A DNA stretch of 32,000 nt from SAR324 cluster bacterium (GTDB lineage Bacteria; SAR324; NAC60-12), in the NCBI GenBank assembly GCA_015232315.1, contig JADFZZ010000041.1, positions 1,402 through 33,401 of the forward strand, written 5' to 3'. Positions 2,895 through 31,987 of this stretch are shown here, piece after piece; positions within the stretch are counted from its first letter, which is position 1; each line of letters opens with the position of its first letter. Both the position numbers and the translations under genes were made by a program. Under the pieces are notes generated by a model. That model was not told the DNA's origin. It ran no database searches and saw nothing but the letters and a program-made list of their open reading frames with translations.

Positions 2895-4051
2895 TTATGA
2901 GTTCACTGCTGAATTTTTTTGATAACGTCTTTTCCTTGCAAGGGGCCCAAACCGAATTTGTCGAACCGGAGGGACTGGATATTTTGATTCCGGAGGATTT
3001 ACAGACCACCATCAAAATCCCGGAAATGATACGACTCGGGTTTGGCGAAACCATCCCGCCAGGCGCGCAAAAGGTGAGCCTGGAATCAGACTGGTTTGAA
3101 AAAATTGAACAGTTGATGGCAGACAATGGCGGACTAAACCGGAAGATCTGGAACCTGCCGATCCCTTCCATGTCTGATCCTGAGCGAATGCTGGAACATA
3201 CCTTGTCGCTGTCCAATGCCACCTACCGTTATCAAAGCACCAAAGCCACCTGGAGTCGATACTGGTTTCTGAACTTTCACTACACGGCCCGCTCTGATGA
3301 AACCCGTGAAGGGTTATTGGGGCTTGGTTTCAATCTGGGCACAGGGAGTGTGCTGGATCTGGCTCTGGAACCCCTGCTAACGCAAATCAATGAATTACCC
3401 GCGTTAACCTCCGGAATGTCTGTTCCGGAACAGGAACTTCCCCAGCAATGGAGCGTCTCCCATTTGCAAACCATTTTGAAGCGAAGTATTCCGGAGCGGA
3501 TTCAACAGGATCTGGGCAAATTTCTGTCGGTGATCCAGCGTCACATGGACAATGATCTCAACCGGATTACCCAGTACCATCAGGATATGCGTGCGGAATC
3601 CATTGGAAAACTGCTCCAACTGACACAAAAAAAGGAATTGAGCGACAAACAGGAAAAGGAAAAACAGCGTCATGAGTTGAGACTGGAAGCGGTGCTCCGG
3701 GAATATCAGTCCAAGGTGAGTGACCTGTATCAGAAATACGCGCTGGATATTGAATGCACTCCGGTTCAGATCCTGGAAATTTTGATGCCTGTACAACGGT
3801 GTTTTGTCAATATCCTACGGCGCAAAGGACATAGAATGATCGCGCTCGACTGGAATCCGCTGGTAAAAAAACTGGAAGTCCCTCCTTGTGAATACACGTT
3901 CACCCGGGAAAGTTCGCGAATGGCCTGTGATGATCAGCTCCATCTCATCCATCCTGACGCGCACAAGCCTTGCCCCTCCTGTGAGAAGCCCTTCTGTAGA
4001 GCCTGTTTTCCCGTGCAATGTCCCAAATGCCAGAAAAAGTTCTGCCCCTGA
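2891..4051 (+). CDS. hypothetical protein, SNF2-coupled partner with C-terminal Cys-rich (zinc-ribbon-like) cluster
   Basis: ATG 2891 overlaps the SNF2 stop (ATGA at 2891-2894). 386 aa with no family I recognise. It has a charged coiled-coil (KKELSDKQEKEKQRHELRLEAVLREYQSK) and the C-terminal cluster CPSCEKPFCRACFPVQCPKCQKKFC (three CxxC pairs). Alternative start at ATG 2897. Confidence 0.7.
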   Translation: MIMSSLLNFFDNVFSLQGAQTEFVEPEGLDILIPEDLQTTIKIPEMIRLGFGETIPPGAQKVSLESDWFEKIEQLMADNGGLNRKIWNLPIPSMSDPERMLEHTLSLSNATYRYQSTKATWSRYWFLNFHYTARSDETREGLLGLGFNLGTGSVLDLALEPLLTQINELPALTSGMSVPEQELPQQWSVSHLQTILKRSIPERIQQDLGKFLSVIQRHMDNDLNRITQYHQDMRAESIGKLLQLTQKKELSDKQEKEKQRHELRLEAVLREYQSKVSDLYQKYALDIECTPVQILEILMPVQRCFVNILRRKGHRMIALDWNPLVKKLEVPPCEYTFTRESSRMACDDQLHLIHPDAHKPCPSCEKPFCRACFPVQCPKCQKKFCP

Positions 4052-4266
4052 GTGTTCGGCTCTCCTTGCAAGCCGACGGGATGACACAGGCAAACTGTAA
4101 AGTACGTTTGACTGAATTTGAAAGGTGCCGAAAAAACCATAGAGCCTAAAAATTCACGAAATAATACTTCTATCTTGGAACCTCTCCCCTGTCTGTGGTA
4201 AGACACCCGCCACTGTTAAAACTTCCAGACAATTCCTTCTCACCATTATTTCATTCTCAGTTCCGT

Positions 4267-7200
4267 ATGCGTATCAAAAGTTTGCACGTTTCAGGCTTCA
4301 AGTCCTTCTGTCATAAAGTGGAAATAGAGTTTCAACAAAACGGCGTTACTGTCATTGTCGGTCCCAATGGTTGTGGGAAAAGCAATGTGGTGGACGCAAT
4401 CCGCTGGGTGCTGGGAGAACAGCGGGCCAAGCATTTGCGCGGTGGCGCCATGGAAGACGTGATTTTTGCGGGTAGCGCCTTTCAAAAACCTCTGGGAATG
4501 GCTGAAGTGACCCTGACCTTTTCCAATCTGGATGGGGATGTGCTGACTAAATACATGGATTATACTGAAATTGCTGTCACCCGGCGATTGTACCGCTCTG
4601 GCGAAAGTATTTACATGATCAACAAAACTCCGGTCCGGCTCATGGATATCCGGGAATTGTTTATGGATACCGGCGTGGGTGGTGGCGGTTATTCGATCAT
4701 TGAGCAGGGAAAAGTCGGCGAAATCATCAGCGCCAAACCGTCAGAACGGCGGTTGCTCATTGAGGACGCTGCGGGAATTGTCAAATTTCAATCAAAACGC
4801 CAGCAGGCCGAAAAGCGCATGGAAGAAACCCTCCTGAATCTGAGTCGGGTCGATGACATTTTGAGAGAACTCCATCTTCAGGAAGAAACACTGCGGGATC
4901 AGGTGGTCAAGGCTCAGGCCTACATTCAGGTGCGGGATGAACTTCAGAAAACAGACCAGAACCTGTCTACTTTCCGCTGGAACAAGGCCATCCGCAAAGA
5001 ACAGGAATCAGAACAGACGATTTTGAAATACAAGGAACTTCAATTTGCCCTGCAAAATGAAAAAGCCACGTTGGAAACGGATATCGAACGGGTTTCACTT
5101 CAGGAAGCCATGGTGGAGAAGGAACTGGAAATTCTTCGTGAGGAATTGTTTCAACGGGAACGGGAAATTCAGGATCTGGACAACAAACGCGCTTTGGAAA
5201 AACAGAATATCGCCAACTTTCAGAGCTGGATTGACCGGCATGATGAGGAATTGACGGAACTGCGAGAAAAAATTGTGAATCTGCTCCAGCATCGGAGTGA
5301 AACCGATAATCATCTCGAACAACTCAAACAGCAGCACAAGGAGGTTCAAGCCTTTATCCAGAACATTGAACAGGAACGGTCTGAAGAAGAACTCAAACTG
5401 ACTGAGCTGAATACAGAAATGCAGCAGATGCAACGGAAACTCATCACAGTTCATACCGAATTGACCAACAATACCAATCAACGGTCTTTCATGCAGGATC
5501 GTCTGGATAATTTTCTGGACCGTCATTTGAAAATGAACGATCAATTGCGCTCCAGCGATCAGTTGATCCTTCAGTCAGAACGCAAGGTGGAACAGGCTCA
5601 AACCAAAGTGGAACTGGTTCAGAATGAAAAAGAAACGCAGGAAGAACACTTGCTGAAACTTCAGTCGGATTATGATTCTCAGGAAGAAGCGGTCGAGTTG
5701 ACCCAGTCACGTTTGAAAAAAACGCAGTACGATTTTCATGCCGCCAGTTCCCAATTGGAGTCTTTGAAAAACATTCAGACCCGACATGAGGATTTTGGCG
5801 ATAACGTCAAAAAACTGTTTGATCTTCTCGAAAAAAATCCTGACATGCGTCAACGTTTGGGAATCATGGGAATTCTGGCGGATTTCATTCATATTCCCGC
5901 CCAATATGTCGAACTCATTGGTCCTGTGATGGTCGATTATCTGGACTGGGTCATTGTGAAACAGGCAAACGCACTGCCTGACGTTGAGGCTTTTTGTCAG
6001 CAGAAGGGACTCGGGCGTCTGAATTATATTGCCCTCGATAAACTCGACTTTGACGCACAGCCTGCCACTGACGGACAGCCCATGTCCTCATTCATTGAGT
6101 TCAGAGGCGCGGTGGCCCATTGGGGACAGCGCTTTTTCGGCCTGATTCGGGTTCTTGAGGATTCCGGCAAGACAAACCTTGATCATTTGAATCGTTCTGT
6201 GTCAATCCAGAATACAGCAGAATGGTTGACCGTTAATGGAACGTATGTTCTGCGTAACGGCAGTGTGAGGATTGGCAAGACACAATCCACCACCTTTGGT
6301 TTTCTGGAACGACAGAAAAAGATTGATGAACTTCAGGAACAGACTGAAACCCTGGAAGAACAGGTTGAAGAACTGGAAGGGGACTTGCAGGAACTGACAG
6401 AACAGCAGGAACAACTGGAAGAGGCTATTCAGGAAACCCACGCCCGCACCCATGAACTTGAATTGGAATTATTAAGAAACAACAAGGAACTGGAACACGA
6501 TGTGCTGGAATTTAAACGGGCCCGTCAGGCCCATGAACTCCTGCAATCTGATCTGTCCCTGATTGAGAAGGAAAAAGAAAAGGTAACAGCAAGTCTCCAG
6601 AATGTCAGCGAAGCATTGGTCGCGCTTGAAGACAAACGGTCTGAACTGGAGGATCGACTGACGAGACAACAGGAATCGATCCTGATTCAGAAAAGAATGG
6701 TCGATCAGGTTTCTGAAAACCTGCTGGGACAGCGTGTCGCCTTGACTGAAGCTTTTGAACAATTGAAAAATGCCCAGAAAACAGTGGACCGATTGCATCA
6801 GGAGCATCGCGAAGCTGAAGTCCGACTGGTGATGTTGAACAACGCGCATGAGGATTCCAGAAAAAAGGTTGAACACAGCCAAAAAATAGTTTTCGAAATT
6901 GACGCGAAATTTGAAAACCTGCTGAAAGACCGTGAAGCCGCCAAAGCCCAGCAGGAAGAAACCGCTTTGAAACACCAGGATGTCAGTCAGGAACGCACTG
7001 AGAAAAACGCCGCTCTGCACAAGGTCCGGCAGGATCTGGAACTCCTCATGGGACAGATTCATGAAGAGGATCTGAAAACCACAGAATTCCGATTTCAGCG
7101 GGAACAACTCGAACAGCAGTTATTGACCAGTTACAACCTGACACCGGATGAACTTTCACAGAATCTGGATTTATCAGGGCTGAACGAGAACGAACTGGCT

Positions 7201-7851
7201 GGACAACTGAGAAGCCTGAGAGCAAAAATGGGCGCCATGGACCAGGTCAATCTGGCGGCTCCGGATGAATACGCGCTCCTGACAGAACGGATGGGATTTT
7301 TAACCCGGCAGTCGGATGATCTGAAACATGCTGTGGATGATTTGCAAAAAACCATACGTGAAATCAACAATGAATCCAGACGCCGATTCAGGGAAACATT
7401 TGACATGGTCAACATGCATTTCAAGGAAACCTTCACGACCTTGTTTGGTGGTGGTGACGCTAAAATGGTGCTGACCGAAGCTGAAGATATTCTTGAGGCC
7501 GGGATCGAGATTGTGGCTCAACCTCCTGGCAAGCGGCTTCAGAACCTTAATCTGTTTTCCGGTGGAGAAAAGGCTCTGACCGCGATTTCGCTCATCTTCG
7601 GGATTTTTCTGATCAAACCCAGTCCGTTCTGTTTGCTGGATGAGGTGGACGCACCACTGGACGACACCAACGTCGGTCGTTTCAACCACATGATCCGGAA
7701 GCTCACAGACAACTCACAATTTATTGTTATCACCCATAATAAAAAGACCATGGCGATAGGGGAACGGTTGTATGGTGTTACCATGGAAGAACCCGGTGTT
7801 TCAAAAACCGTTTCAGTTCAATTCAATGAAGCCGAATCTCTCACTGCTTAG
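4267..7851 (+). CDS. smc: chromosome condensation/segregation ATPase SMC
   Basis: The N-terminus MRIKSLHVSGFKSF...GPNGCGKSN..AIRWVLGEQ is canonical SMC. It has long coiled-coil arms, a hinge-like segment (GIMGILADFIHIPAQY), the signature LSGGEKALTA and Walker B CLLDEVDAPLDD. I place the start at ATG 4267 rather than the ORF-track start at 4195, because SMC proteins begin at the M-x-(I/L)K-x-L motif. Confidence 0.9.
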   Translation: MRIKSLHVSGFKSFCHKVEIEFQQNGVTVIVGPNGCGKSNVVDAIRWVLGEQRAKHLRGGAMEDVIFAGSAFQKPLGMAEVTLTFSNLDGDVLTKYMDYTEIAVTRRLYRSGESIYMINKTPVRLMDIRELFMDTGVGGGGYSIIEQGKVGEIISAKPSERRLLIEDAAGIVKFQSKRQQAEKRMEETLLNLSRVDDILRELHLQEETLRDQVVKAQAYIQVRDELQKTDQNLSTFRWNKAIRKEQESEQTILKYKELQFALQNEKATLETDIERVSLQEAMVEKELEILREELFQREREIQDLDNKRALEKQNIANFQSWIDRHDEELTELREKIVNLLQHRSETDNHLEQLKQQHKEVQAFIQNIEQERSEEELKLTELNTEMQQMQRKLITVHTELTNNTNQRSFMQDRLDNFLDRHLKMNDQLRSSDQLILQSERKVEQAQTKVELVQNEKETQEEHLLKLQSDYDSQEEAVELTQSRLKKTQYDFHAASSQLESLKNIQTRHEDFGDNVKKLFDLLEKNPDMRQRLGIMGILADFIHIPAQYVELIGPVMVDYLDWVIVKQANALPDVEAFCQQKGLGRLNYIALDKLDFDAQPATDGQPMSSFIEFRGAVAHWGQRFFGLIRVLEDSGKTNLDHLNRSVSIQNTAEWLTVNGTYVLRNGSVRIGKTQSTTFGFLERQKKIDELQEQTETLEEQVEELEGDLQELTEQQEQLEEAIQETHARTHELELELLRNNKELEHDVLEFKRARQAHELLQSDLSLIEKEKEKVTASLQNVSEALVALEDKRSELEDRLTRQQESILIQKRMVDQVSENLLGQRVALTEAFEQLKNAQKTVDRLHQEHREAEVRLVMLNNAHEDSRKKVEHSQKIVFEIDAKFENLLKDREAAKAQQEETALKHQDVSQERTEKNAALHKVRQDLELLMGQIHEEDLKTTEFRFQREQLEQQLLTSYNLTPDELSQNLDLSGLNENELAGQLRSLRAKMGAMDQVNLAAPDEYALLTERMGFLTRQSDDLKHAVDDLQKTIREINNESRRRFRETFDMVNMHFKETFTTLFGGGDAKMVLTEAEDILEAGIEIVAQPPGKRLQNLNLFSGGEKALTAISLIFGIFLIKPSPFCLLDEVDAPLDDTNVGRFNHMIRKLTDNSQFIVITHNKKTMAIGERLYGVTMEEPGVSKTVSVQFNEAESLTA

Positions 7852-15802: not shown

Positions 15803-16750
15803 ATGAAACATTTATTTGTGAAATATGACTCGGCCCTGGCTTTCAGAACGCTAGTAACCATCTCCATGCTTTGGACAGTGCCCTTCATCACGGGTTGTAA
15901 TTCACTGTTTTACTTCCCGAGCAGACACATATTTTCAACCCCGGATCAGGTGGGGCTGCTCTATGAACCTGTGACCTTCAGGCATGAAAGCGGCCCCCAA
16001 CTCTCAGGTTGGTTCATTCCAGCGTTTGATACCACAGAACCAGCACAGGGAACGGTGGTTCAAATTCACGGTAACGCTGAAAACATGACCAGCCATTGGT
16101 TCTCGCTGGCATGGATGCCATTTTCCCGGTTCAATCTGTTTACCTTTGACTATCGGGGTTATGGCGGCTCGGAAGGAATACCGGAGATAGAAGGAACCAT
16201 TCAGGATGTCAAATCGGCCATCGCTTATGTGCAGTCCCGCACAGATGTTGACAAAACCCGATTGATTGTGATTGGGCAAAGCCTGGGGGGCGCCTTGAGC
16301 ATTGCGGCACTGGCTCAACCCTCTGAAATCAAGGTGCCCATGCTGATTGTGGAAAATACGTTTTCTTCCTATCAACGCATTGCCCGTGAAAAACTTCAGG
16401 AATCATGGATTTTATGGCATTGGCATTTATGGGCGCCTGATCTTCTGATTGATGACACCTACAGTCCGGAATCATTGATTGCAAAAATCCATGATATTCC
16501 GATACTCTTCATTCATGGAACCAACGACCAGGTGATTTCATACCATCATTCCCTGATCTTGTATGAAAAAGCCAATGTTCCCAAATACCTGTGGATTTTG
16601 CCACAAGGTCAGCATCTCAGCACCTTTCATACGGCAAACAACAGAAAAAACCTGCTGGATTTTATTCAAACCAAACTGCCTCAAACGGACAAACCGAAAT
16701 CATTGCCGCTGGTAACTCATGATTTTGTCTGGGAACCCCAAACCCGGTGA
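15803..16750 (+). CDS. alpha/beta-fold serine hydrolase, probable lipoprotein (BEM46/ABHD13-like)
   Basis: HGNAENM oxyanion-region motif, GQSLGG nucleophile elbow (GxSxG), downstream IHGTNDQV (Asp) and QGQH (His). N-terminal hydrophobic segment ends in the lipobox-like ITGC. Confidence 0.8.
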   Translation: MKHLFVKYDSALAFRTLVTISMLWTVPFITGCNSLFYFPSRHIFSTPDQVGLLYEPVTFRHESGPQLSGWFIPAFDTTEPAQGTVVQIHGNAENMTSHWFSLAWMPFSRFNLFTFDYRGYGGSEGIPEIEGTIQDVKSAIAYVQSRTDVDKTRLIVIGQSLGGALSIAALAQPSEIKVPMLIVENTFSSYQRIAREKLQESWILWHWHLWAPDLLIDDTYSPESLIAKIHDIPILFIHGTNDQVISYHHSLILYEKANVPKYLWILPQGQHLSTFHTANNRKNLLDFIQTKLPQTDKPKSLPLVTHDFVWEPQTR

Positions 16751-18660
16751 TTGTCCCTCCGAATGGTCAAGCGGCGGGTATCAAAATATTCCAGCAATTC
16801 CACAGCATGTTTTCGTCCAATATTCAGAAATTCCTTGAATTCAATCACACTGATGGTTTCATGCGTGGAAAAATAGTGTTCCAGTCTGGCAACAATGGCC
16901 TCCATCTGCCCTGACGTATAAAACAAATCCGGTGACACCCGAACCAGTTGTTTCTGGTGAGTTGCTTTTTTCAAAAAGGCGACGCCCTGTTTTTCAGCCA
17001 TTGCAAGATCCTGTAACAACTGGGTCTGACGCCGGGGTTGAAACTGGTCGGCTTCCAGCAGTGTGGTGCATCGGGCCAGTTGGTCCTCATAATCATCTGA
17101 AATTTGTATGGTATGGTCCGGCAACGCAAAATACTGATCCTGTTGCGCCAGTCGATTCTGCCGTGTCAGATATTTCAAGACCGATTCCACTTCTCTGGTG
17201 TCTTTGAACAGCAGTGAAACCTTACCGCCGATTTCAACTGCGGTCATTCCCGCCAGATCAGGATGTTTCTGATGATGAGCCGCGATCACACGCACCAGAA
17301 ACTCTGCCATTTTATGGAGATGTTCCACATGAATATACCGGGTTGCCTCCGTGGTGATACCAATGATTTTTTGAGAACTTCTTAATTTTTGCAATATGCC
17401 ATCGGCTCGCCGGGAAGAAAGTCCGCTTCTCACCATAAAATCTTTTTCTGTGACACCCTGAATGGATTGCAGATACACCACAGTTTCCCCGATTTCTTCA
17501 TCAGAGCCATGGACCAATAATCGCATTTTATCTGTTTGTGCCTGACGGATCCTTCGGGATTTTCCGGGAAATGGATCAATCACTTTTCCTCCGCCTATGG
17601 TGAATTGCGCATTGAAATTCCGGATGATGAAGCGGTCACCTGTCCGACTGCTCACCTGTTTTTCCAAACGAAGCTGAACGAGGGAACGCTCACCCGGATT
17701 GATCAGATCCCGGTCAAACAGGACCAACTTCCCCATCACTTCAGCGGTTCCCAGATAAACTCTCACCCGTGTATTGTGAGCCACCCCGGCAGGAATATCT
17801 TTCAATATTCTCAATTCGGCATTGAGCATGTAACTGGTCAGCAGTGTGCCTTCAGTCGCCAGTTGGTCCCCCCGTTGAATCTCATCTCTGGATAAATTTG
17901 AAATATTGAGGGCCGCACGTTGACCCGCACGGATTTCATCCTGAGACTGGCCATGAACCTGAAATCCACGGACACGGACTATTTGCCCTGAGGGAAATTG
18001 TGTCAGAGGAACCTCTTTGCGCACTCTTCCTGAAACGACCGTTCCGGTCACCACCGTGCCAAAACCCTTGACAGAAAACGACCGATCCACATTCATTCGG
18101 AAGGGGTGATCGACATGACGGGGGGTGAGTTTTTTATATAATTTTTCCAACTGCGTTTTCAACGCCTCCAGACCTTCGCCGGTTTTGGCGGAAACAGGGA
18201 CCATCGGTGCGGCTTCCAGGAAGGTATCCTTCACCGTTTCCCTGACTTCCTCAGCGCATAAATCGCGCATTTCAGGGTCTGCAAGATCGCTCCGTGTCAG
18301 CACAATCAGCCCCTGCCTGACACCCAGCAAATCACAGATCGCCAGATGCTCACGGGTTTGAGGCATCACCCCTTCATCGCAGGCAACGACCAGTAGTAGG
18401 GCATCAATTCCTGAAACCCCGGCAAGCATGTTGTGAATAAACTTTTCATGCCCCGGCACATCAATGAACGCAAACCGGGTTCCCAACGCATCCTGATAAT
18501 GGGCAAAACCAAGATCAATCGTGATTCCTCGGCGTTTTTCTTCGGCCAGAACATCCGTATCTGTTCCGGTCAGTGCTTTGACCAGTGTGGTTTTCCCATG
18601 ATCAATATGCCCGCCGGTTCCAATCACATAATAACCCGAAATGTCAGTATCAGATGCCAT
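16717..18660 (-). CDS. selB: selenocysteine-specific translation elongation factor SelB
   Basis: N-terminal GTPase [41 protein letters not shown], then DVPGHEKF and TRSD. Its 647-aa length includes the long C-terminal winged-helix extension characteristic of bacterial SelB. Confidence 0.9.
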
Positions 18661-19450
18661 GAGTCACGCCTTGAACAGATTCAATCTGGAAATGAAAGGT
18701 TTGCGGCCTTTTTTTTATTTGTATTGGAGAATGGTTTTTTTCATGAAACGAGACGTTCCCTTCCTGATCCATGAGAATCACTGTGGAGGTACGGGTTCCA
18801 TACAACGGAGTTTTGATGAAAAGGGGAGACAGTAGCCGTTCCATATGGATTCCAATGCCCGTGTCAGGCAGTTGTTCATCAGGAAAACCAGACGGATCTT
18901 CCAGAATCGCAAACAGATCCCGCACCTCAAACCGTTCCTGATGAAGCAGTTGTGACAAACGTTGTTTTCCTGCCAGAACCTTGGGCCAGGGTGAATCAAG
19001 CAGATGGTTGCTGAGTCCATACATTCCCGCAGACAGCGTTGACACCTCAGCAGTTCGGTTGGAGACATACATGATTTCATTTCCGGCAGAACTGATCTGC
19101 CCAATCAACAGATTGAAACCGTCATACTGTTGCCTGTTTCTGTTCACACGATCGACATATTCCGCAACAGAAGCTGACGCCTGAAGAAAATCCCGAACCA
19201 GCAGACCTCGACTGAACAATTTTTTGGAGGGCACTATTTCACGATAGTTGGTAATGATGGCAAATTTTCCCTGCCGGGTCACCCCAAGCCAGGTGCCGCC
19301 TGCTTTTTTATCTTTTCCAGCCAATAGATCGGGAAACTCTTTCCAGTAATGAGCCTTCACCGAAGGCCGATGAAAAAACTCATCCCGATTGGAGAGCAAT
19401 ATGAAGGGAAAGCCGGAATGCTGCTGAGAAACAAGAAACAGAACACACAT
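18650..19450 (-). CDS. NRDE-family protein (DUF833 / TANGO2-like)
   Basis: Starts MCVLF (conserved N-terminal Cys2) and contains the eponymous LLSNRDEF motif and GGTWLGV. Its stop (18650-18652) lies 11 nt inside selB. Confidence 0.8.
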   Translation of the reverse strand: MCVLFLVSQQHSGFPFILLSNRDEFFHRPSVKAHYWKEFPDLLAGKDKKAGGTWLGVTRQGKFAIITNYREIVPSKKLFSRGLLVRDFLQASASVAEYVDRVNRNRQQYDGFNLLIGQISSAGNEIMYVSNRTAEVSTLSAGMYGLSNHLLDSPWPKVLAGKQRLSQLLHQERFEVRDLFAILEDPSGFPDEQLPDTGIGIHMERLLSPLFIKTPLYGTRTSTVILMDQEGNVSFHEKNHSPIQIKKRPQTFHFQIESVQGVTHGI

Positions 19451-23073: not shown

Positions 23074-23259
23074 AATCTCTTTCCTGAGTATTTTAAGTTT
23101 GCTGAAATTTTTAACGGAGTTTATTTTTTCCCGATGAAGACGCAAGCCCTATAGGGATTTTTTTTCGAGAGAAAGTGATAGAATTATTGCTATAGCCTTT
23201 TAGATTTGTTAGTTGGTTTTACAGAAGACGAATAAACAACTTATTTTTAAAAAACGCAC

Positions 23260-26118
23260 ATGGCTTCAGCTCCTCCCAATAATCCATCAGTTCAGAAACC
23301 TGTCAGAAATATGCATCCGATCGGCGTGCATCTGGCTCGGGCCTACAACACCAACGTGAAACTCGGCTTTTTATTGAACAATAAAAAATCCATCATGGGC
23401 AATTCGCAGACAGGTTTTGCCTTGCAGCCATCGGCCATAAAAAGATTGCGAAGTATTTACAAGGAAGATCCCTCCTTAAGTTTTCTTCCTGGAAAAATCA
23501 CTGAGCGTGAAGAAGATGAATCCCTGGCCGCCAAACTTTATTTCATCACGGGACAAAGTGTGCTGGAACACTTCAGTGATACTGTCAGACAATTCATCAA
23601 ACCCTTGATGATGGCCATCTCCCGTGCGAATGATGAGGATGACTCTGACGAAAATAAGGCTAAAATCATTCAGATGTTCAATGAACCCGTGGACACTAAA
23701 AATCCACAGTCGCCCACCCCCTTCAAACTGTTGCGGCAAGTACAGCAGGCACTGATGAACATGCGGCAGCGCATGCAGATGGAAGTTGATGTTTTTGGCA
23801 GAGTCAGAAAAGGATTGATCACTGACGAGGATTGTCAACACGCCCTGACCTCGTCCAATCTGCTTGAAGTCAAGGGGCGCATTGTCGCGGCTGAACCGAT
23901 TTTTCATATCCTGAAAACACTGCGTCAGATCAAGCAATCAGGCTTCCAGGGAGAATTTCACCCTAAAATCACTCTGGAACGGGCCATCACCAATCTTGAG
24001 AACTGGGGTCCGGGTACCCCTCCCCGAAAAATAGAACTCAGAGATCATCCCTCTGGCAACAAAATTCCTGTTCTAAATCAAAAACTGAAGGAACAGCTTC
24101 AGATCTTCGATGAATCCGCCGCAGAAATTCTTCAGCACACAATTGCGCCACAATCCTCTCAGGAAATGCTGGATTATGCGACGCAAATGCTTAAAAAAAG
24201 CTATGACCCTCTACCACAGCCTGAACCATCCGAAGACGAAGAATCGCCAGAACCTGAAACCGCACCCATGCCACGGGCTAACCCGTTGGATGTTGAAGAA
24301 ATCATCCAGTTCTATCAGCACCGTGAACCCGGAAACACAATTTTTCTGGTACAAGCCCTTCATTTTGAAACAGCGGTGCAAACCTATTTGAAAAAGGGAA
24401 TTCTAGGCTTGGAGCAAACCAAGGAATTGCGTGAAATCTTTGTAACCACACTGATTGATCTGACCTGCGCGATTGATCTGTTTCTGTCAGAAGGAGAAAA
24501 AATCTGCGACAGCATTCGGAACTTTACCTCCAAATCCGGAATCAACTCCAACGCTGGCGAGTTGGGGAATGTTGTCAATCCCGGGAAAAACACGCATCAC
24601 CTGCATTTCACTGACGCAATCTATGAATGGACCTGGGGTTATGTCAAAGTATTAAAAAAATATGTCATGCTCAATGAAGCGATTCGTGACAAAATCATCA
24701 CCGAAGCACAAACGATTGAAGACATCGCGTTTCTTGACACCAATGAAGCGATTGACCGCATCACCCAGCTTCAGTCGTTGACGAACGCGTTCATCAAGGG
24801 CTATATCTCTGAAGAACAACAGAAACGCTTTCTGGATTCAGAACAAACATCCACAGAGGAACTACAAAGTGTCGCCTCTTTTTTCACAGCCCTGGGCAAA
24901 TACAACTTTGAAAAACGCTGTATTGATTTCACCAGAGGCATTCTGGAGTTGATCAGCTACTATGAGCCTCTGATTGAAAAAGACCCCACTTTCAAAAAAA
25001 ACTTTTTTCCGGTCTTCAAGGAACTCAAGGAACTGGCGGCTGAATCATCCCATACCCAGATCATTCAGGATATGCTGTCCGGCGAATCCTACAAACGTAC
25101 TCCTGAAAGCATTTCACTGATCGTCCAGCGACTGGGACACGCCCTGGAACTCAAGTTGAAATATGAGGGCTTCGTCAAGGAATATGGTCCGAAAATACAG
25201 GATCTGAACAAGGCCTTGAAAAGTGGCTATGATTTTGATCTGTATAACAAGATTTTTTATGTTTCAGAAGACCCTGAGGCCCCCTCATTGCTGGGAATGC
25301 TGAATCTGGTCAATGGTTCTGAGGAAGCCTGTGATCTGAATATTTTTCATGATAATGACAACATTCTGTTCCGCAAATGCCTCCTCAATTCCTTCAAAAC
25401 CAATATCGTGGACGAAAGCAATGTGACAGATCTGATCGGAATGGATTATTTTGTGAGTATTCTGACACATTTCCAGATTATGTTCTTTCATGCACTGCGA
25501 AAAATATTGATTCTGGATGTGGAAACCCATCGTAATGAGGAAGGTAATAACTCTCTGGGCATCAAGAAAGAGCGCATTGAGGAAATGCGACAGGAATGTG
25601 AAGCAATCCTGACCAAGCAGATGCCTATCAGTTTGGCCCTCAAAAAACTGGAGGGCATCTGGCAATCCCTTGAGAAAAACAAAGTCATTGCCACCAACGC
25701 AAAAAGCATTGCCATGATGCAGCAGAAATGGGAAGGGAGCATCCCCGGCGGATCTTCCCTTCACCAACGCTTGAAAAGCAACCCCAACAACCGGGAAATG
25801 CTGGAGGACTATGCAACAAAAATGCGGGAAGCTATTCAAAAATATCAGAAGGATATGGAACAAATCGCCCAGCGTTTGCGTGACTGGAAAAATAAACAGG
25901 ATGATCTTCCCAGCCACATTCGTGAGTATCAGCGTCAAATTCTGATCATGGAACGTTCCATTGCCCAGACTGTGGAAGAAATCCGCGAACTCAACCCCAA
26001 AAATCGGGATGATCTGCTCCGGCAGGTTCAGGAGAAAAATATCCGTATTGCCAAATATCGGAAAACTTTAGAAAAATTCAAGAAAGACAACCCTCACGTC
26101 AATTTATCCATCCCCTGA
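23260..26118 (+). CDS. large hypothetical protein (952 aa, apparently all-helical, no recognisable domain)
   Basis: Uninterrupted 2.86-kb ORF and first gene of a tightly spaced plus-strand cluster. Acidic and coiled-coil-like segments but no enzymatic motif recognised. The start is uncertain: no Shine-Dalgarno before ATG 23260, 23311 or 23395. Confidence 0.7.
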   Translation: MASAPPNNPSVQKPVRNMHPIGVHLARAYNTNVKLGFLLNNKKSIMGNSQTGFALQPSAIKRLRSIYKEDPSLSFLPGKITEREEDESLAAKLYFITGQSVLEHFSDTVRQFIKPLMMAISRANDEDDSDENKAKIIQMFNEPVDTKNPQSPTPFKLLRQVQQALMNMRQRMQMEVDVFGRVRKGLITDEDCQHALTSSNLLEVKGRIVAAEPIFHILKTLRQIKQSGFQGEFHPKITLERAITNLENWGPGTPPRKIELRDHPSGNKIPVLNQKLKEQLQIFDESAAEILQHTIAPQSSQEMLDYATQMLKKSYDPLPQPEPSEDEESPEPETAPMPRANPLDVEEIIQFYQHREPGNTIFLVQALHFETAVQTYLKKGILGLEQTKELREIFVTTLIDLTCAIDLFLSEGEKICDSIRNFTSKSGINSNAGELGNVVNPGKNTHHLHFTDAIYEWTWGYVKVLKKYVMLNEAIRDKIITEAQTIEDIAFLDTNEAIDRITQLQSLTNAFIKGYISEEQQKRFLDSEQTSTEELQSVASFFTALGKYNFEKRCIDFTRGILELISYYEPLIEKDPTFKKNFFPVFKELKELAAESSHTQIIQDMLSGESYKRTPESISLIVQRLGHALELKLKYEGFVKEYGPKIQDLNKALKSGYDFDLYNKIFYVSEDPEAPSLLGMLNLVNGSEEACDLNIFHDNDNILFRKCLLNSFKTNIVDESNVTDLIGMDYFVSILTHFQIMFFHALRKILILDVETHRNEEGNNSLGIKKERIEEMRQECEAILTKQMPISLALKKLEGIWQSLEKNKVIATNAKSIAMMQQKWEGSIPGGSSLHQRLKSNPNNREMLEDYATKMREAIQKYQKDMEQIAQRLRDWKNKQDDLPSHIREYQRQILIMERSIAQTVEEIRELNPKNRDDLLRQVQEKNIRIAKYRKTLEKFKKDNPHVNLSIP

Positions 26119-26130
26119 AACAAGGACTGT

Positions 26131-26829
26131 ATGCTCTATCGACAATGGATGTTTGCCGGGTATATCGGCATGGGACTGATCTTGATGAGTCTGCTTATCG
26201 CCGCCACTTTTCCCCGGAAAATGAACACCATGCCGGACGGCTTTTTTACGCCCATCATCGCGTTTGAATTCATCGAAACACAGGAAGAAGTGCGGCAGTT
26301 CTTTGGTCCGATGGATTCAGCGGAGACCCTCAAACGAATTGAGGCCATGAACCGTGGAAACCGTTTTGATTATTTTTATATCGTTCTGTATGGCCCCTTC
26401 TTAATCAGTATTCTGCGCACCCTGTCTATTCAGGAAAAAAATCCGGTTTATCTTCAACTGATGATTTTGCCCCTATTGGCAATGACAGGGGACTTTCTGG
26501 AAAACAGGCAATTATTTGCCATCACCTCCGGGTTGGTTGCCCTTGAACCGATTGATCAGCACCTCGCCACCCTTCACTGGACCACCTGGATGAAATGGGG
26601 AAGCCTGACGATCTTTTTCGCCGCGTTGATTCCATATTTCCGGCACCAAAACCGTTTTGGGAAAATTTATGTTTTGCTGGCCTCGTCGGCCCTTGTGCTG
26701 GGCCTTGTGGCACTGATCCAACGCTCGGTAGTCAATGAAATTTTTGCACTGCTTATTATTGGACTGTTTGTTCTGTTACTGATTTATAGCCAGCTCAGAA
26801 TCATACATTATAAACGAATGGGACAATGA
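26131..26829 (+). CDS. polytopic inner-membrane protein of unknown function
   Basis: 232 aa with about 6 hydrophobic helices. AAGGA lies 4 nt upstream of the ATG. Its stop overlaps the next start (ATGA at 26826-26829). Confidence 0.7.
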   Translation: MLYRQWMFAGYIGMGLILMSLLIAATFPRKMNTMPDGFFTPIIAFEFIETQEEVRQFFGPMDSAETLKRIEAMNRGNRFDYFYIVLYGPFLISILRTLSIQEKNPVYLQLMILPLLAMTGDFLENRQLFAITSGLVALEPIDQHLATLHWTTWMKWGSLTIFFAALIPYFRHQNRFGKIYVLLASSALVLGLVALIQRSVVNEIFALLIIGLFVLLLIYSQLRIIHYKRMGQ

Positions 26830-28442
26830 GTTTTGTTGATCCTGAACAGGTGAACGTGACAACTGAACAAACAAGATACATCCTGGCCATTGACCTGGGT
26901 ACCTCCGGCCCCAAAGTCGCGCTGGTCTCCGTTCAAGGACAGGTGCTGGACTGTTTGGTTGAAAAAACGCCGCTGGAACTGTTTCCCGGAGGTGGTGCGG
27001 AACAAGCACCCGAGGACTGGTGGAATGCCATTGCCCGGGGAGTGAAAAAACTTCTCGCTAAAACCCGGATTCCGCCAGAGCAGATCATCGCGGTGAGCAA
27101 CACGACCCAGTGGTCGGGTACTGTCGCGGTGGACCGCCAGGGAAAACCATTGATGAATGCCATCATCTGGATGGATTCCCGTGGTGCCAAATATCTGAAA
27201 AGAATAACCGGTGGCATACTGAACTATGACGGTTATGATCTCAAAAAGCTGTTCAAATGGTTGAGGAAAACCGGCGGGCTCCCTTCACAGTCGGGCAAAG
27301 ACCCCGTTGCGCATATCCTGTTCATCAAGCATGAACTTCCTCAAATTTATCAAAATACCTATAAATTTCTGGAACCCAAAGATTATCTGAATCTGAAATT
27401 CACCGGAAAATTTGCCGCCGGGATGGACTCCATTGTATTGCACTGGCTTACAGACAACCGGGATATTCAGAACCTGCGCTATGATCAGGAACTCATCCGC
27501 ATGTCCACCATTGATCCGGACAAATTGCCTCCCTTGAAAAAAAGCACTGATACGCTGGGCCGGATTCTGCCCGAAATTGCCAGAGAACTGGGTTTGTCTG
27601 AAGACACGGTGGTTGTGATGGGAACGCCGGATATCCAGTCCGCCACGATCGGTTCCGGTGCCGTCAGGGATTATGAAGCGCATCTTTATATTGGAACATC
27701 TTCCTGGTTGACGTGCCATGTTCCCTTTAAAAAAACGGATATTCTCCTCAACATGGCCAGCATTCCCTCGGCGTTGCCCAATAAATATTTTGTGGCCAAC
27801 GAACAGGAATGTGCCGGCGTCTGCCTGACCTATCTCAAGGACAATCTGTTTGCCCGCAAAGATGAACTCAATACCAATCCCAAAACGCGAAATGTGTATG
27901 AAATTTTTAATCAAATGGCAGAAAAAGTTCCTCCCGGCAGCAACAAGGTCATCTTCACCCCCTGGCTTTATGGAGAACGAACCCCGGTGGAAGATCATAC
28001 CATACGTGGCGGATTTCATAACCTTTCCCTCCATACAACCCGGGATCACATGATTCGTGCGGTATTTGAAGGTGTCGCGCTGAACTCACGCTGGCTGTTG
28101 CAATCCGTAGAAAAATTTGTCAAACGGCCCTTTCCCCAAATCACCATGATTGGCGGAGGTGCCATTTCTGATCTGTGGTGCCAGATTCACGCGGATATTC
28201 TGAACCGGCCGATCCGTCAGGTAAAAAATCCGATCGAAACCAATGTCCGGGGTGCGGCCATGCTGGCTTCACTGTCGCTTGGACTGATCACTGTGGACCA
28301 AATCGCCGAACAGGTTCCCATCGCGAATACCTGGAATCCCCGACCGGAACATAGAGCCTTGTATGATGAACTGTTTGAAAGTTTTCTGGAAATCTATCAC
28401 CAGAACCGCCGCATCCATGCCCGGCTGAACCGTCAAAAATAG
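26826..28442 (+). CDS. FGGY-family carbohydrate/polyol kinase (xylulokinase-like)
   Basis: N-terminal [16 protein letters not shown] (the DxGT phosphate-1 motif) and C-terminal [23 protein letters not shown]. The 538-aa length is typical of the FGGY family. Substrate cannot be assigned. Confidence 0.85.
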
Positions 28443-28449
28443 GAATGAC

Positions 28450-30003
28450 ATGAGCCTGCTACAAAATCTGAAAGCCACCATTGCCCAAGCCAATCCCAAA
28501 CCGTTGACTGACCTGCTTCAGCATCTGGACAAACTCCCGTTTTTGCCGGAAATCGAGAAATATCTGAAAAAATTTCCCCTGGTGAATGATTTGCTGGAAA
28601 AACAATACACACAGATTATGAAAGATCTGGAACAGTCCAGCAAACCCTACCGCAACGATTTTGCCACCCACACCTGTATTCCGAAAAAGGGAATCAACCG
28701 GGACGCTGTTTTGCAGGATATGCGAGCCATGCGTGATCTTGAAATTTCGCGCTGGAAAGACGGTTATGTGTCAGGTGCGGTTTATCATGGCGATGAACAG
28801 CACATTGATTTTCTGAATCAGGTGTATGCGCTCCATTCCCAAAGCAATCCGCTTCATTCCGATTTATGGCCCAGCATCACCAAGTTTGAAGCTGAAATTG
28901 TCGCCATGACCGCTCACATGCTGGGATCTTCGCAAAACAGTCCTGCGAAGGATGTTTGTGGAGTAGTGACCTCCGGTGGAACAGAAAGCATCTTGCTGGC
29001 CATGAAAACCTATCGTGATCACGCACGGGAAACACGAGGTATCCTTAAACCTGAAATGGTGGTTCCAGTCACCGTTCATGCGGCCTTCGACAAAGCCTCA
29101 CAGTATTTCAACATCAAGATGGTTCGCGTCCCTGTTGGACGGGATTATCGCACAAATATCCGTGCCGCAAAAAAAGCGGTCAACAGCAACACGATTGTCA
29201 TGGTTGGTTCGTCACCCTCGTTTCCGCATGGAGTGATCGACCCGATTGAAGAACTTTCCACGTTTGCCCTGGAAAAAGGAATTGGATTTCATACAGATGC
29301 CTGTCTGGGAGGATTTCTGCTACCGTGGGCTGAAAAACTGGGTTATGCGGTGCCGCCCTTTGATTTCAGACTTCCCGGTGTGACTTCCATTTCAGCGGAT
29401 ACCCATAAATTTGGTTATGCGGCCAAAGGAACCTCGGTGATTCTTTACCGAACGCCAGAACTCAGACATTATCAATATTACACGGTGGCCGACTGGCCGG
29501 GAGGCATGTATTTTTCCCCCACGTTTGCCGGTAGTCGTCCCGGCGCGCTGATCGCGGCATGTTGGGCCGCAATGGTCTCTATGGGGGAACAGGGCTATAT
29601 GGATGCCGCCGGAAAAATATTAAAAACCGCGGATACCATCAAACGTGAAATTCGAAACATTCCCGAACTGCATCTTTTGGGGGATCCGTTGTGGGTGATT
29701 TCGTTTGCCTCCAAAACCCTGGATATTTACAGAATCATGGATTACATGACCCAGAAACACTGGAACCTGAATGGCTTGCACAAGCCCTCTGCCGTGCATC
29801 TGTGCGTCACGCTCCGACATACCCAGACAGGTGTGGCAGAACGGTTTATCCAGGATCTTAAAGAAGCGGTGGCTTATGTGAGGCTCCAACCCAAAACCCG
29901 TGGCGGCATGGCACCCGTTTATGGACTGGCGGCCACACTTCCTGCCAAGGGCGTGATTGGGGACATGCTCAAACGTTATATGGATGTCTTGTATAAAGCC
30001 TGA
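28450..30003 (+). CDS. PLP-dependent group II decarboxylase-fold enzyme, sphingosine-1-phosphate-lyase-like
   Basis: [10 protein letters not shown]...[22 protein letters not shown] and [20 protein letters not shown] (PLP-lysine in HK) closely parallel the eukaryotic SPL motifs as I recall them (SNPLHPDIFPG..KIEAEIV; SADTHKYGFAPKGSSV). 517 aa, no N-terminal TM helix. Confidence 0.8.
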
Positions 30004-30006
30004 GTT

Positions 30007-30528
30007 ATGTCAAATCTTCGTTATCGCATTTCATCCTTTATCGTCATTTTCTGCATTGTTCTCGCCCAGACAAGCCACGCCTTGCCGCTTAAAACAGAAA
30101 TCCTCAACGACAAGGAACAGCCTGTCGCAAAAGTGCTGGTTTACATTGATTTTGTGGAAATTCTGGATATGTCCGACAACCTTCAGGGCAAAGTTGGCAT
30201 TTTCAACAATCAGGGCAATCTTGAACTGTTCATTGTGAAGGAAGATAACCTGAAATCAGTGGTTGGCAGAGCATTTGATCGGAAACTGTATGATGCCAAT
30301 GATCAACTGGTGGGCTATTATGACTGGAGCACTTTCTGGGTCTATGCCTATTCCCCCACCGGAAAAAAACTGGGACAGGCCAAATGCATTGCGTTTCGTG
30401 GCGTATGCGCGGCAGGAGTTGCCACCTATCTGACTGAATTATTGACAAAACCTCTTGTAACTCCCGGTGGAACTCCTAACATTGCCCAACCTGAAACAAT
30501 TCAGGACGGCGGCGTCACACTGGAATAA
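30007..30528 (+). CDS. small secreted protein of unknown function
   Basis: 173 aa, starting 3 nt after the SPL-like gene. N-terminal signal peptide ISSFIVIFCIVLAQTSHA-LP. No recognisable domain. Confidence 0.65.
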   Translation: MSNLRYRISSFIVIFCIVLAQTSHALPLKTEILNDKEQPVAKVLVYIDFVEILDMSDNLQGKVGIFNNQGNLELFIVKEDNLKSVVGRAFDRKLYDANDQLVGYYDWSTFWVYAYSPTGKKLGQAKCIAFRGVCAAGVATYLTELLTKPLVTPGGTPNIAQPETIQDGGVTLE

Positions 30529-30570
30529 TTGATTGCCGGAATCAATGACACATTACCTTCATGGAACCTC

Positions 30571-31314
30571 ATGGAACGTTTATCTTTAACCCAGGCCTGT
30601 GAAAAAATGGGAATCTCCAGAGTTTCCCTGAATAAACTGATGCGAGAACAGGGAATCAAGACTTCCCGATCCGGAAAAATCCAGACGATTACCATTGACC
30701 AGTATGAAGTCTTGAGATCCGCGCAGAAAAGAACGCTGACCCCTGAACTGTTGCCCACCCCCACGATTCATGAAATTCTCCCGGCCTTGTCAACAACCAT
30801 GGATCCTTCCGTTGAACGACTCGTCCGAACTCTGGAAACACAAATTGAGTTTTTAAAGCATCAATTACGACTTGAGGAAAATTCAACGGCTGATACAGCC
30901 AGTCTGGAAATTGAATTGTTGCACGAACACATCCGGATGCTAAAGACACAACTGGCTGAAATGAGGGACCGTGAACGCATGTTGCTGGAATTGAATCAAA
31001 CCCTCACCGAAAACAACATCAAACTGTCTGAAAGTTACAATCAGATCCATCAACTGCTGGTGAAAACACAGGAAGCAAACGCGGAACTCAGAACAGACAT
31101 TCGCACAATGGAAACTTTGGCCGAAGAAGCATCAGCCAATAATACACCACCCCCACCCATTCCTGTGAATGAGAACAGATCCATGGTTTCGGCGCTTCTC
31201 AAGCGGACGTTGCCCATCCTTGGACGAGGGGCCTCCGTGCCCCCTGCGCCCGCCCGAGACAAACAAAAGAATCCTCCACATAAAAATTTTTCTAAAAACA
31301 AACGTTCTTCGTGA
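30571..31314 (+). CDS. HTH (excisionase/MerR-like) plus coiled-coil protein with basic Pro-rich tail
   Basis: MERLSLTQACEKMGISRVSLNKLMREQGI looks like a helix-turn-helix. It is followed by about 110 aa of coiled-coil and a PPPPIP / KQKNPPHKNFSKNKR tail. ATG 30571 is preferred; TTG 30529, immediately after the upstream stop, is possible. Confidence 0.6.
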   Translation: MERLSLTQACEKMGISRVSLNKLMREQGIKTSRSGKIQTITIDQYEVLRSAQKRTLTPELLPTPTIHEILPALSTTMDPSVERLVRTLETQIEFLKHQLRLEENSTADTASLEIELLHEHIRMLKTQLAEMRDRERMLLELNQTLTENNIKLSESYNQIHQLLVKTQEANAELRTDIRTMETLAEEASANNTPPPPIPVNENRSMVSALLKRTLPILGRGASVPPAPARDKQKNPPHKNFSKNKRSS

Positions 31315-31320
31315 ACGGGT

Positions 31321-31665
31321 TCAGGCAAGAAAACACGATAACTCGACAAATGCCATCAATTCCTCTTCCAGTTCGGAAGAAATCCCTGAATCCGCAGGGA
31401 ACCATGGCATACCTTGATCAAAGACCGTGTGGTGTTCACACTCCAGACACTGGTATTTGGGGGGATGCACTTTGATATAGGTGTTCCCCAGCAAGGGAAA
31501 AGGCCGCATGGTGGTTTCTCCGCGAACGTCCAGGCGATGGTTCGTCATATAGCCACAAACCGGACAGATTCCCCATGTCGAATCAATATCCACACTGATG
31601 ATCATGCTTTTATCAGCCAGTAATTGACAATCTGTAATTTGAATATCATAGGCTTGGTGTTCCAT
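31321..31665 (-). CDS. 114-aa zinc-ribbon protein resembling the N-terminal zf domain of ISL3-family transposases (probable transposase remnant)
   Basis: Strong AAGGAGG lies 5 nt upstream of ATG 31665, which is why I prefer this start to the ORF-track start at 31791. The pattern MIISVDIDSTWGICPVCG...H..R..P..G......PPKYQCLECEH mirrors the ISL3 N-terminus (beta-segment, CxxCG, about 30 aa, (R/K)(Y/W)xCxxC). No DDE catalytic domain follows. Confidence 0.4.
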   Translation of the reverse strand: MEHQAYDIQITDCQLLADKSMIISVDIDSTWGICPVCGYMTNHRLDVRGETTMRPFPLLGNTYIKVHPPKYQCLECEHHTVFDQGMPWFPADSGISSELEEELMAFVELSCFLA

Positions 31666-31735
31666 TGTGTCCTCCTTGTTGAAAAAGACATTTTCCATAT
31701 TCTGAAATTTCTGGCGGTTTTCCCTATGCCCCGGT

Positions 31736-31987
31736 TTACTGACGCGCCACGAATCCATCCGTGTTGCGCGTGCACTGATTCGTTTCAGCAATAACTTTCC
31801 ATTTGTTGCTCATCACCGTCAAATAATCATTATTTTCAGCAAATTGAGCCAGTTCAGCCCCCTGCATTTCAAGCAGTAGATTTTGCCGGGCCAACTGAAT
31901 CGCCTGATTTTGATTCACCTGATAGAGCCACACGGTGATACCTGTCAAAACCAGCAGGACTACAAGCATCAACCGTCGAAGGAGCAC
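31736..31987 (-). CDS. small membrane-anchored hypothetical protein (start uncertain, frame open to window edge)
   Basis: 83 aa from GTG 31987 (an ATG lies 6 codons later). N-terminal hydrophobic anchor LMLVVLLVLTGITVWL, then a polar domain. The reading frame has no stop before nt 32000, so it may extend beyond the window. Confidence 0.4.
   Translation of the reverse strand: MLLRRLMLVVLLVLTGITVWLYQVNQNQAIQLARQNLLLEMQGAELAQFAENNDYLTVMSNKWKVIAETNQCTRNTDGFVARQ

Follow-up and report, generated by a model that had tools for sequence, protein, structure and literature searches.

Sphingoid bases leave eukaryotic sphingolipid metabolism in two steps, in which a kinase (LCB4/LCB5, SphK1/2) phosphorylates C1 and a pyridoxal phosphate (PLP)-dependent lyase (Dpl1p, SGPL1) then cleaves the product by a retro-aldol reaction. 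Many free-living bacteria have soluble sphingosine-1-phosphate (S1P) lyases, one of which serves as the structural model of the human drug target SGPL1. Structures are available for the enzymes of Symbiobacterium thermophilum (StSPL; 3MAD, 3MAF, 3MAU, 5EUD) and Burkholderia pseudomallei (S1PL; 5K1R). A review of microbial sphingolipid enzymes treats bacterial S1P lyases without a partner kinase, and sphingosine kinases only as members of the DAGK family (PMC6148460). The present analysis concerns a cluster of six plus-strand genes (positions 23260–31314) in a 32,000-nt stretch of DNA, hereafter the window, from the metagenome-assembled genome (MAG) of a SAR324 cluster bacterium (contig JADFZZ010000041.1; cluster locus tags HQM11_18910 to HQM11_18935). 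Two of its genes, gene 3 for a kinase of the FGGY family and gene 4 for a predicted soluble S1P lyase, form a pair that is conserved across genomes, and the remaining four (genes 1, 2, 5 and 6) are orphans.

The logic proposed for this pair is that of the eukaryotic route, namely phosphorylation of C1 followed by PLP-dependent retro-aldol cleavage, and the lyases of the two systems are homologous, with identical key residues. The kinases, in contrast, are unrelated: the eukaryotic enzymes have a DAGK/NAD-kinase-like fold, whereas gene 3 belongs to the FGGY (actin-like ATPase) fold. The bacterial system further differs in that its lyase is soluble and without an N-terminal anchor, its genes are arranged as an operon-like pair, and its substrate is one that we infer.

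Routes consisting of an amino-alcohol kinase and a PLP phospho-lyase exist for ethanolamine, 5-hydroxylysine and aminopropanol, and follow the same strategy of phosphorylation and subsequent PLP-dependent breakdown. Their phospho-lyases are enzymes of the class-III aminotransferase fold that eliminate phosphate, whereas gene 4 comes from the group-II-decarboxylase-like S1P-lyase family, predicted to cleave a C–C bond, and the kinase is of a different family. With the FGGY carbohydrate kinases (XylB, GlpK, GntK, LsrK, ribulokinase) gene 3 has in common both full-length domains, the catalytic Asp and the ATP motifs, but it scores below their equivalog cut-offs, differs in one loop and one insertion described below, and has an S1P lyase as its partner rather than a sugar isomerase or transporter. 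A literature search found no paper in which an S1P lyase is combined with an FGGY kinase or xylulokinase, in agreement with a preliminary description of the window, according to which the arrangement matched no described pathway; a search on bacterial sphingoid-base kinases returned nothing relevant. The NCBI names of the two products are 'FGGY-family carbohydrate kinase' (gene 3) and 'aminotransferase class V-fold PLP-dependent enzyme' (gene 4). Judged from sequence, the pair would follow the known exit from sphingolipid metabolism, kinase first and lyase second, but with a non-orthologous kinase, and the pairing itself appears to be new.

The kinase–lyase pair and its conservation

Gene 4 (28450–30003, plus strand; 517 aa), the second gene of the pair, was assigned by Pfam to the fold-type-I PLP enzymes. 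Its product matches StSPL (3MAD) with an E-value of 2e-198 and 61.5% identity, human SGPL1 with 6e-132, Burkholderia S1PL with 5e-124 and yeast Dpl1p with 3e-119, whereas the same-fold decarboxylases MfnA and GAD reach only e-27 to e-19. The key residues of StSPL (K311, G168, T169, H310, S353, C276, H201, D274, Y105, H129, A103, N126, K317 and Y482; PMC6148460 Table 3) include the PLP-binding Lys, the PLP phosphate cup, the substrate-phosphate pocket and the entry Tyr, and the enzyme has a long hydrophobic substrate tunnel (PMC6148460). At 14 of these 14 positions gene 4 is identical to StSPL; Lys320 corresponds to K311, and the substrate-phosphate pocket (Y105, H129, A103, N126 and K317 in StSPL numbering) is kept. 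The sequence has no N-terminal membrane anchor. By all of these sequence features gene 4 is an S1P lyase, a PLP-dependent retro-aldolase expected to release phosphoethanolamine and a fatty aldehyde from S1P or sphinganine-1-phosphate. The preliminary description had called it 'S1P-lyase-like', which is right as to the relationship and understates it, given that gene 4 is a close orthologue of the crystallised StSPL.

Gene 3 (26826–28442, plus strand; 538 aa), the first gene of the pair, contains both FGGY domains over practically their full length: FGGY_N (8e-41; 140.6 bits against a cut-off of 28.8; profile positions 1–245 of 245) and FGGY_C (3e-29; 102.8 bits against a cut-off of 27; profile positions 5–196 of 198), so that the FGGY assignment made earlier from the sequence alone was confirmed by Pfam. 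In NCBIfam, however, the protein stays below the equivalog cut-off of every named sugar kinase, including XylB (268.8 vs 380.25 bits), GntK (221.1 vs 648.55), LsrK (151.1 vs 528) and GlpK (128.6 vs 590.35). Alignment with E. coli XylB and GlpK revealed that the DxGT motif (D23/G25/T26) and the GGG motif (G443/G444) lie in invariant columns, and that the putative catalytic D269 aligns with the Asp of 'GGGD' in XylB and of 'AG--D' in GlpK. A conserved 'QWSGT' occupies the position of the GlpK 'NQRET' loop, and a family-specific insertion of ~21 residues is absent from XylB. The nearest solved structures are those of gluconate kinase and xylulokinase, and no DAGK_cat domain was found by Pfam. With its core motifs intact, the kinase is expected to be an active enzyme that has its own specificity. 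That the pair was acquired recently by horizontal transfer was considered and rejected, as the GC content, the GC content at third codon positions and the codon-usage distance of genes 3 and 4 are unremarkable; the higher codon-usage distances of the short genes of the cluster are an effect of length.

For a forward test of gene neighbourhood, 80 genome loci harboring relatives of the lyase (58–73% identity) were fetched and searched with all six proteins of the cluster; 76 of them keep enough upstream sequence, and four are cut off upstream. An FGGY kinase is located directly upstream of the lyase, on the same strand, in 69 of the 76 testable loci, and 68 of these 69 kinases are 49–64% identical to gene 3. 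The remainder comprises six loci with a different kinase and one with neither. The carriers of the pair span at least eight phyla (Chloroflexota, Myxococcota, Desulfobacterota, Spirochaetota, Actinomycetota, Bacillota and Bacteroidota, as well as Burkholderiales). Reciprocally, the lyase is present in 62 of 80 metagenome loci fetched with the kinase, and eight of the 18 lyase-less loci end within ~1 kb downstream of the kinase gene. When both sets were pooled, the lyase was found immediately downstream of 113 out of 143 full-length kinases, and nine more kinases lie 0.45–3 kb from a lyase, sometimes in reverse order. The preliminary description, which had treated the kinase and the PLP lyase as a pair, is thus borne out on this point by an adjacency that is very strongly conserved across genomes.

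A third conserved gene of the module (an aldehyde dehydrogenase, a transporter or a regulator) was sought and rejected. Since no third gene recurs in more than 8 of the 125 compact pairs, the conserved unit is two genes, not six. Genes 1, 2, 5 and 6 are absent from all 160 fetched loci (80 via the lyase, 80 via the kinase). The comparison of neighbourhoods proposed in the preliminary description therefore came out differently for different parts of the cluster: genes 3 and 4 co-localise elsewhere, and genes 1, 2 and 5 do not, an outcome which that description had itself named as speaking against a six-gene system.

The six loci with a different kinase belong to Neomarinimicrobiota and unclassified MAGs. 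In these, the kinase slot directly upstream of the lyase is occupied by a protein of ~310 aa with DAGK_cat and YegS_C domains (6e-24 and 7e-18), the gene for which overlaps the start of the lyase gene. The DAGK family includes the eukaryotic sphingosine kinases (PMC6148460). The six DAGK-linked lyases form one clade nested among the FGGY-linked ones, at distances (0.28–0.35) that fall within the range observed between FGGY-linked lyases (mean 0.31), which indicates that the kinase partner of the same lyase was swapped once. Among the sequence-derived arguments, this swap is the strongest for the FGGY enzyme supplying the phosphorylated substrate of the lyase.

Some loci deviate from the common arrangement or have particular neighbours. 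In an Anaerolineaceae locus (L065:2142–5087), the FGGY kinase ahead of the lyase shares only 31% identity with gene 3; a second FGGY lineage, divergent from the first, may have come to occupy the slot there. In a single metagenome locus (L157:1914–7063), an aldehyde:ferredoxin oxidoreductase (AFOR_N, 2e-58; AFOR_C, 2e-75) is encoded between the FGGY kinase and the lyase, as would fit an aldehyde product that needs oxidation. Signalling genes flank the pair in eight metagenome loci (L126, L131, L143, L149, L151, L158, L160 and L161; e.g., L160:4611–11421), where the gene for a PAS-HD_5 (HD-GYP-like) protein overlaps the start of the kinase gene and the lyase gene is succeeded by one for a TPR-containing Ser/Thr protein kinase; the flanking genes in Myxococcota encode response regulators and histidine kinases. 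The substrate or product of the pair could act as a signal in some clades.

Proposed reaction and competing explanations

The cluster is probably a lineage-specific juxtaposition of genes around a widespread, self-contained module of two genes: the kinase would phosphorylate a 2-amino-1,3-diol, likely a sphingoid base, and the lyase would cleave the product. In the proposed mechanism, gene 3 would use ATP to phosphorylate the C1 hydroxyl of the diol, for which a sphingoid long-chain base (sphinganine or sphingosine, for example) is the likeliest candidate. By homology to StSPL, gene 4 would then form an external aldimine with the C2 amine through exchange at Lys320 and cleave the C2–C3 bond in a retro-aldol reaction, giving phosphoethanolamine and an aldehyde. 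The pair would in this way break down sphingoid bases or render them harmless, and would recover their carbon, nitrogen and ethanolamine phosphate. We infer from these comparisons both that gene 3 feeds gene 4 and what the substrate is. A sphingoid base is the likeliest substrate because of the identity of the lyase, the hydrophobic tunnel of StSPL and the replacement of the FGGY kinase by an enzyme of a lipid-kinase family, the last being the main reason to favour a lipid-like compound; the chances of this particular substrate seem to us nearly, if not quite, even. The wider proposal, that the FGGY kinase represents an unrecognised class of sphingoid-base kinases and constitutes, with the soluble S1P lyase, a widespread pathway of sphingoid-base degradation in at least eight phyla, is put forward more tentatively still.

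Several points weigh against this interpretation. We know of no FGGY-family kinase that acts on a lipid, the characterised members using small sugars and polyols, and to our knowledge the physiological substrate of the soluble bacterial S1P lyases has not been established. No genes of sphingolipid synthesis were found near the pair in any examined locus. In 2–3 related loci, moreover, a RuBisCO-like protein (1.5e-42) adjoins a kinase 57–59% identical to gene 3 in place of the lyase; these loci (L119:5324–8933, L137:4683–8910 and L146:1232–5699) also contain an MFS transporter or a TetR regulator. A single group-specific position (C297/A) separates the RuBisCO-linked from the lyase-linked kinases, which hints at a small soluble substrate. 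The RuBisCO-like association and the known substrates of FGGY kinases, along with gluconate kinase and xylulokinase being the nearest solved structures, are what would be expected if the pair acted on a small water-soluble 2-amino-1,3-diol (an amino-polyol or amino-sugar alcohol) and the FGGY enzyme were a conventional small-molecule kinase. We regard this explanation as unlikely, though deserving of serious attention: the lyase is a close relative of StSPL, which cleaves S1P and has the long hydrophobic tunnel, and in six loci with an orthologous lyase the kinase slot is filled by a DAGK/YegS-type enzyme, the characterised relatives of which are lipid kinases. The RuBisCO-like association itself is confined to those 2–3 loci, in one of which the gene lies on the opposite strand, and was set aside as a caveat rather than used as a pointer to the substrate; alternatively, the lyase may lie elsewhere in these genomes, the linkage in this kinase subclade being merely looser. 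Other members of the subclade have a lyase within 2–3 kb. That the two adjacent genes are metabolically unconnected is very improbable; gene 3 would then be a normal pentulose or gluconate kinase, and the substrate of gene 4 would come from a different enzyme. The best NCBIfam matches of gene 3 (xylulokinase and gluconokinase) and the generic NCBI annotation of both genes would agree with such an arrangement, but not the far lower scores of gene 3 relative to every equivalog cut-off, the substitution of an unrelated kinase fold in the same slot, or the same-order adjacency, frequently with an overlap or almost no gap, in more than 110 loci of at least eight phyla among changing neighbours.

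The preliminary description had instead taken all six genes for a single undescribed system with a common function, which would have to be specific to the SAR324-type lineage and which we consider improbable. All five junctions are of 42 nt or less, including one ATGA overlap, purine-rich tracts resembling ribosome-binding sites precede genes 2–4, and no plus-strand terminator-like site lies in the gaps between the six genes, the only one on that strand being inside gene 3. The gene order is kept in the sister MAG HQM12, and, with the tight spacing, this means that the orphans could still make some lineage-specific contribution, a further point against a self-contained module. HQM12 is, however, the sole genome that keeps the order, and its synteny has no independent weight because the sequences are 97–100% identical; its contig JADGBI010000039.1 ends within the kinase gene (502 of 538 aa; L086:13568–15073), and the lyase, gene 5 and gene 6 are on a separate 114-kb contig, which places the assembly break in the middle of the conserved pair. 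Homologues of genes 1, 2 and 5 never adjoin a kinase or lyase gene of this type (four, three and three other genomes or contexts, respectively) and are found in unrelated surroundings, which for gene 5 are conserved among related genomes; gene 6 has practically a single homologue, and the orphans occur in none of the 160 fetched loci. Spacing, on which the earlier argument for a shared function was built, says little here because tight junctions are also common elsewhere in the window: outside the cluster, four of the nine same-strand junctions measure 39 nt or less. The gene selB overlaps a TANGO2-family gene by 11 nt (16717–19450, minus strand), so that overlapping junctions between apparently unrelated genes appear normal in the source genome. 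A fragment of an insertion sequence at the 3′ end of the cluster points to rearrangement. A defence system was rejected, as PADLOC gave no specific model: gene 4 shows generic PLP-fold similarity to SspA and DndA (e-10 and e-9), and gene 6 matches LmuB at 1.4e-3, which is coiled-coil-level similarity only. In this respect the preliminary description, which recognised no known defence system, was correct.

Co-transcription of the six genes is plausible from the sequence but, in so compact a genome, would not alone imply a common function; the orphans may be co-transcribed with the kinase–lyase pair in the source bacterium. Internal promoters or terminators splitting the cluster were considered and rejected, since the scans were at chance level: 15 promoter-like matches were obtained, compared with 10.4 ± 3.4 in shuffled sequences, and 17 terminator-like ones, compared with 10.9 ± 3.6, and neither is an enrichment.

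Orphan genes and flanks of the cluster

The layout and spacing of the six genes given in the preliminary description agree with the list of open reading frames (ORFs) and with the measured gaps, which are, in order, 12 nt, a 4-nt ATGA overlap (the stop of gene 2 with the start of gene 3), 7 nt, 3 nt and 42 nt; the last gap is counted from ATG 30571 of gene 6 and becomes 0 nt from the alternative TTG start at 30529. The four products for which that description could name no family, those of genes 1, 2, 5 and 6, indeed have no significant match in Pfam, NCBIfam, PADLOC or PHROGs. Origin of the orphans from a phage or mobile element was rejected, as PHROGs matched only the insertion-sequence fragment.

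Gene 1 (23260–26118, plus strand; 952 aa) is a lineage-restricted orphan outside the conserved module. Only six homologues were detected among 5.8 billion proteins, all of them in MAGs of SAR324/TL4 type. In four other genomes (L001, L002, L004 and L005), the homologues (36–47% identity) are solitary, with different neighbours each time and usually with a convergent gene downstream. No relatives of gene 1 or gene 6 were found in the PDB by sequence.

Gene 2 (26131–26829, plus strand; 232 aa) encodes a predicted membrane protein of a small unnamed family with 29 homologue clusters, and likewise stands outside the module; the contexts of three homologues are mutually unrelated and contain neither kinase nor lyase. 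The AlphaFold2 model, with a confidence score (pLDDT) of 96, consists of six long helices, as anticipated by the earlier reading of a membrane protein with about six transmembrane segments. The family carries a strictly conserved 'PDGFFTPIIAFEF' motif, and its invariant residues are D80, D121, E124, N125, K155 and E203. Since these invariant charged residues are partly located within the predicted long helices, the family looks like an undescribed membrane enzyme or transporter. The UniRef label 'DUF4386' on one homologue was dropped, as no member of the family convincingly matches any Pfam model. Structure searches, which the preliminary description had suggested for the orphans, were run with the models of gene 2 and gene 5; neither gave a significant fold match, the gene 2 model having none in the PDB.

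Gene 5 (30007–30528, plus strand; 173 aa), also lineage-restricted and outside the module, encodes a predicted secreted beta-barrel protein. Its AlphaFold2 model (pLDDT 87) comprises an N-terminal signal-like helix, which supports the signal peptide claimed previously, a barrel of ~10 strands and a C-terminal hydrophobic helix; resemblance to the LURP-one/tubby-type barrel is weak and non-significant. Of its 25 homologue clusters, every one with a named source comes from a SAR324/TL4-type MAG. In three related genomes the homologues adjoin miaA (L092:6986–8534, L093:6959–8471 and L094:8001–8450), and in the first two of these they directly follow a signal-peptide protein of 333–339 aa, the L092 copy of which ends in '…VSLQF', as in an outer-membrane beta-barrel. 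This partner, which resembles an outer-membrane protein, is absent from the window; together with gene 5, it may form a two-gene envelope module of the SAR324/TL4 lineage.

Gene 6 (30571–31314, plus strand; 247 aa) is a near-orphan outside the pair, with a putative N-terminal helix-turn-helix (HTH), a coiled coil and a basic tail. Counted from the alternative TTG at 30529, the product would be 261 aa long; ATG 30571 is the likelier start because the homologues begin at residue 15 of the TTG numbering and the NCBI call is 247 aa. Among 1.84 billion cluster representatives only four matches were obtained, two of them strong, namely the sister-MAG copy and one real homologue (P0062; 36% identity over the full length). 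Of the HTH and coiled coil claimed in the preliminary description, the HTH found weak support (HTH_17, E = 0.022), and a distant, weak relative (P0064) is a multi-HTH protein. Residues 31–89 (TTG numbering) match a 793-aa protein (P0063) in 12 separate stretches, which suggests that the N-terminal module exists elsewhere as a tandem repeat. Based on their distribution, genes 1, 2, 5 and 6 appear to be young lineage-restricted genes, with contexts of their own in related genomes where these were seen (genes 1, 2 and 5), and not parts of a conserved system.

Upstream, the cluster is bordered by a divergent intergenic region (23146–23259) shared with aroC on the minus strand, the chorismate synthase identity of which, as recognised earlier, was confirmed by Pfam; the region would begin at ~23074 if aroC uses an internal ATG, according to the 364-aa call of the sister MAG. 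It contains one weak sigma-70-like match (23218–23247, plus strand; 9 of 12 positions), and such matches are not above chance. Downstream, a convergent ORF (31321–31791, minus strand; 156 aa) encodes the N-terminal zinc-ribbon fragment of an ISL3-family transposase. It matches the ISL3 transposase model NF033550 with an E-value of 3.5e-7 over positions 2–84 of 370, at 29.6 bits against a cut-off of 180; other matches are to Zn_ribbon_ISL3 (Pfam, 0.014, weak) and to a PHROG transposase family (4e-5). Judged by the coverage of the NCBIfam model, no full-length transposase with a catalytic domain is encoded there, so that of the ISL3-like zinc-finger ORF seen in the preliminary description the relationship stands, reduced to an N-terminal fragment whose match is below cut-off. 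The fragment appears to mark a past insertion at the 3′ end of the cluster, which makes rearrangement plausible as the origin of the juxtaposition. No tRNAs or Rfam RNA elements were found in the window. Elsewhere in the window (573–7851), a gene for an SNF2-family helicase (773 aa) overlaps a family-less ORF of 386 aa by 4 nt, and after them comes the gene of a full-length SMC protein, hinge domain included.

Possible significance for bacterial sphingolipid turnover

For four of the six genes, tight spacing in a compact genome did not predict a common function, which calls for caution in reading such clusters. For the other two, the cross-phylum pairing with an FGGY kinase offers a concrete candidate for the step that supplies the phosphorylated substrate of the lyase, one that can be tested in culturable myxobacteria. 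If the proposed reaction is true, it would provide the FGGY family with its first lipid-type substrate, as far as we know, and would reveal a compact bacterial route of sphingolipid turnover hidden by the current generic annotation. The carriers of the pair are mostly bacteria of sediment and soil and anaerobes, and free sphingoid bases would then be met commonly in the environment, as a substrate or a stressor, by bacteria without any known sphingolipid synthesis.

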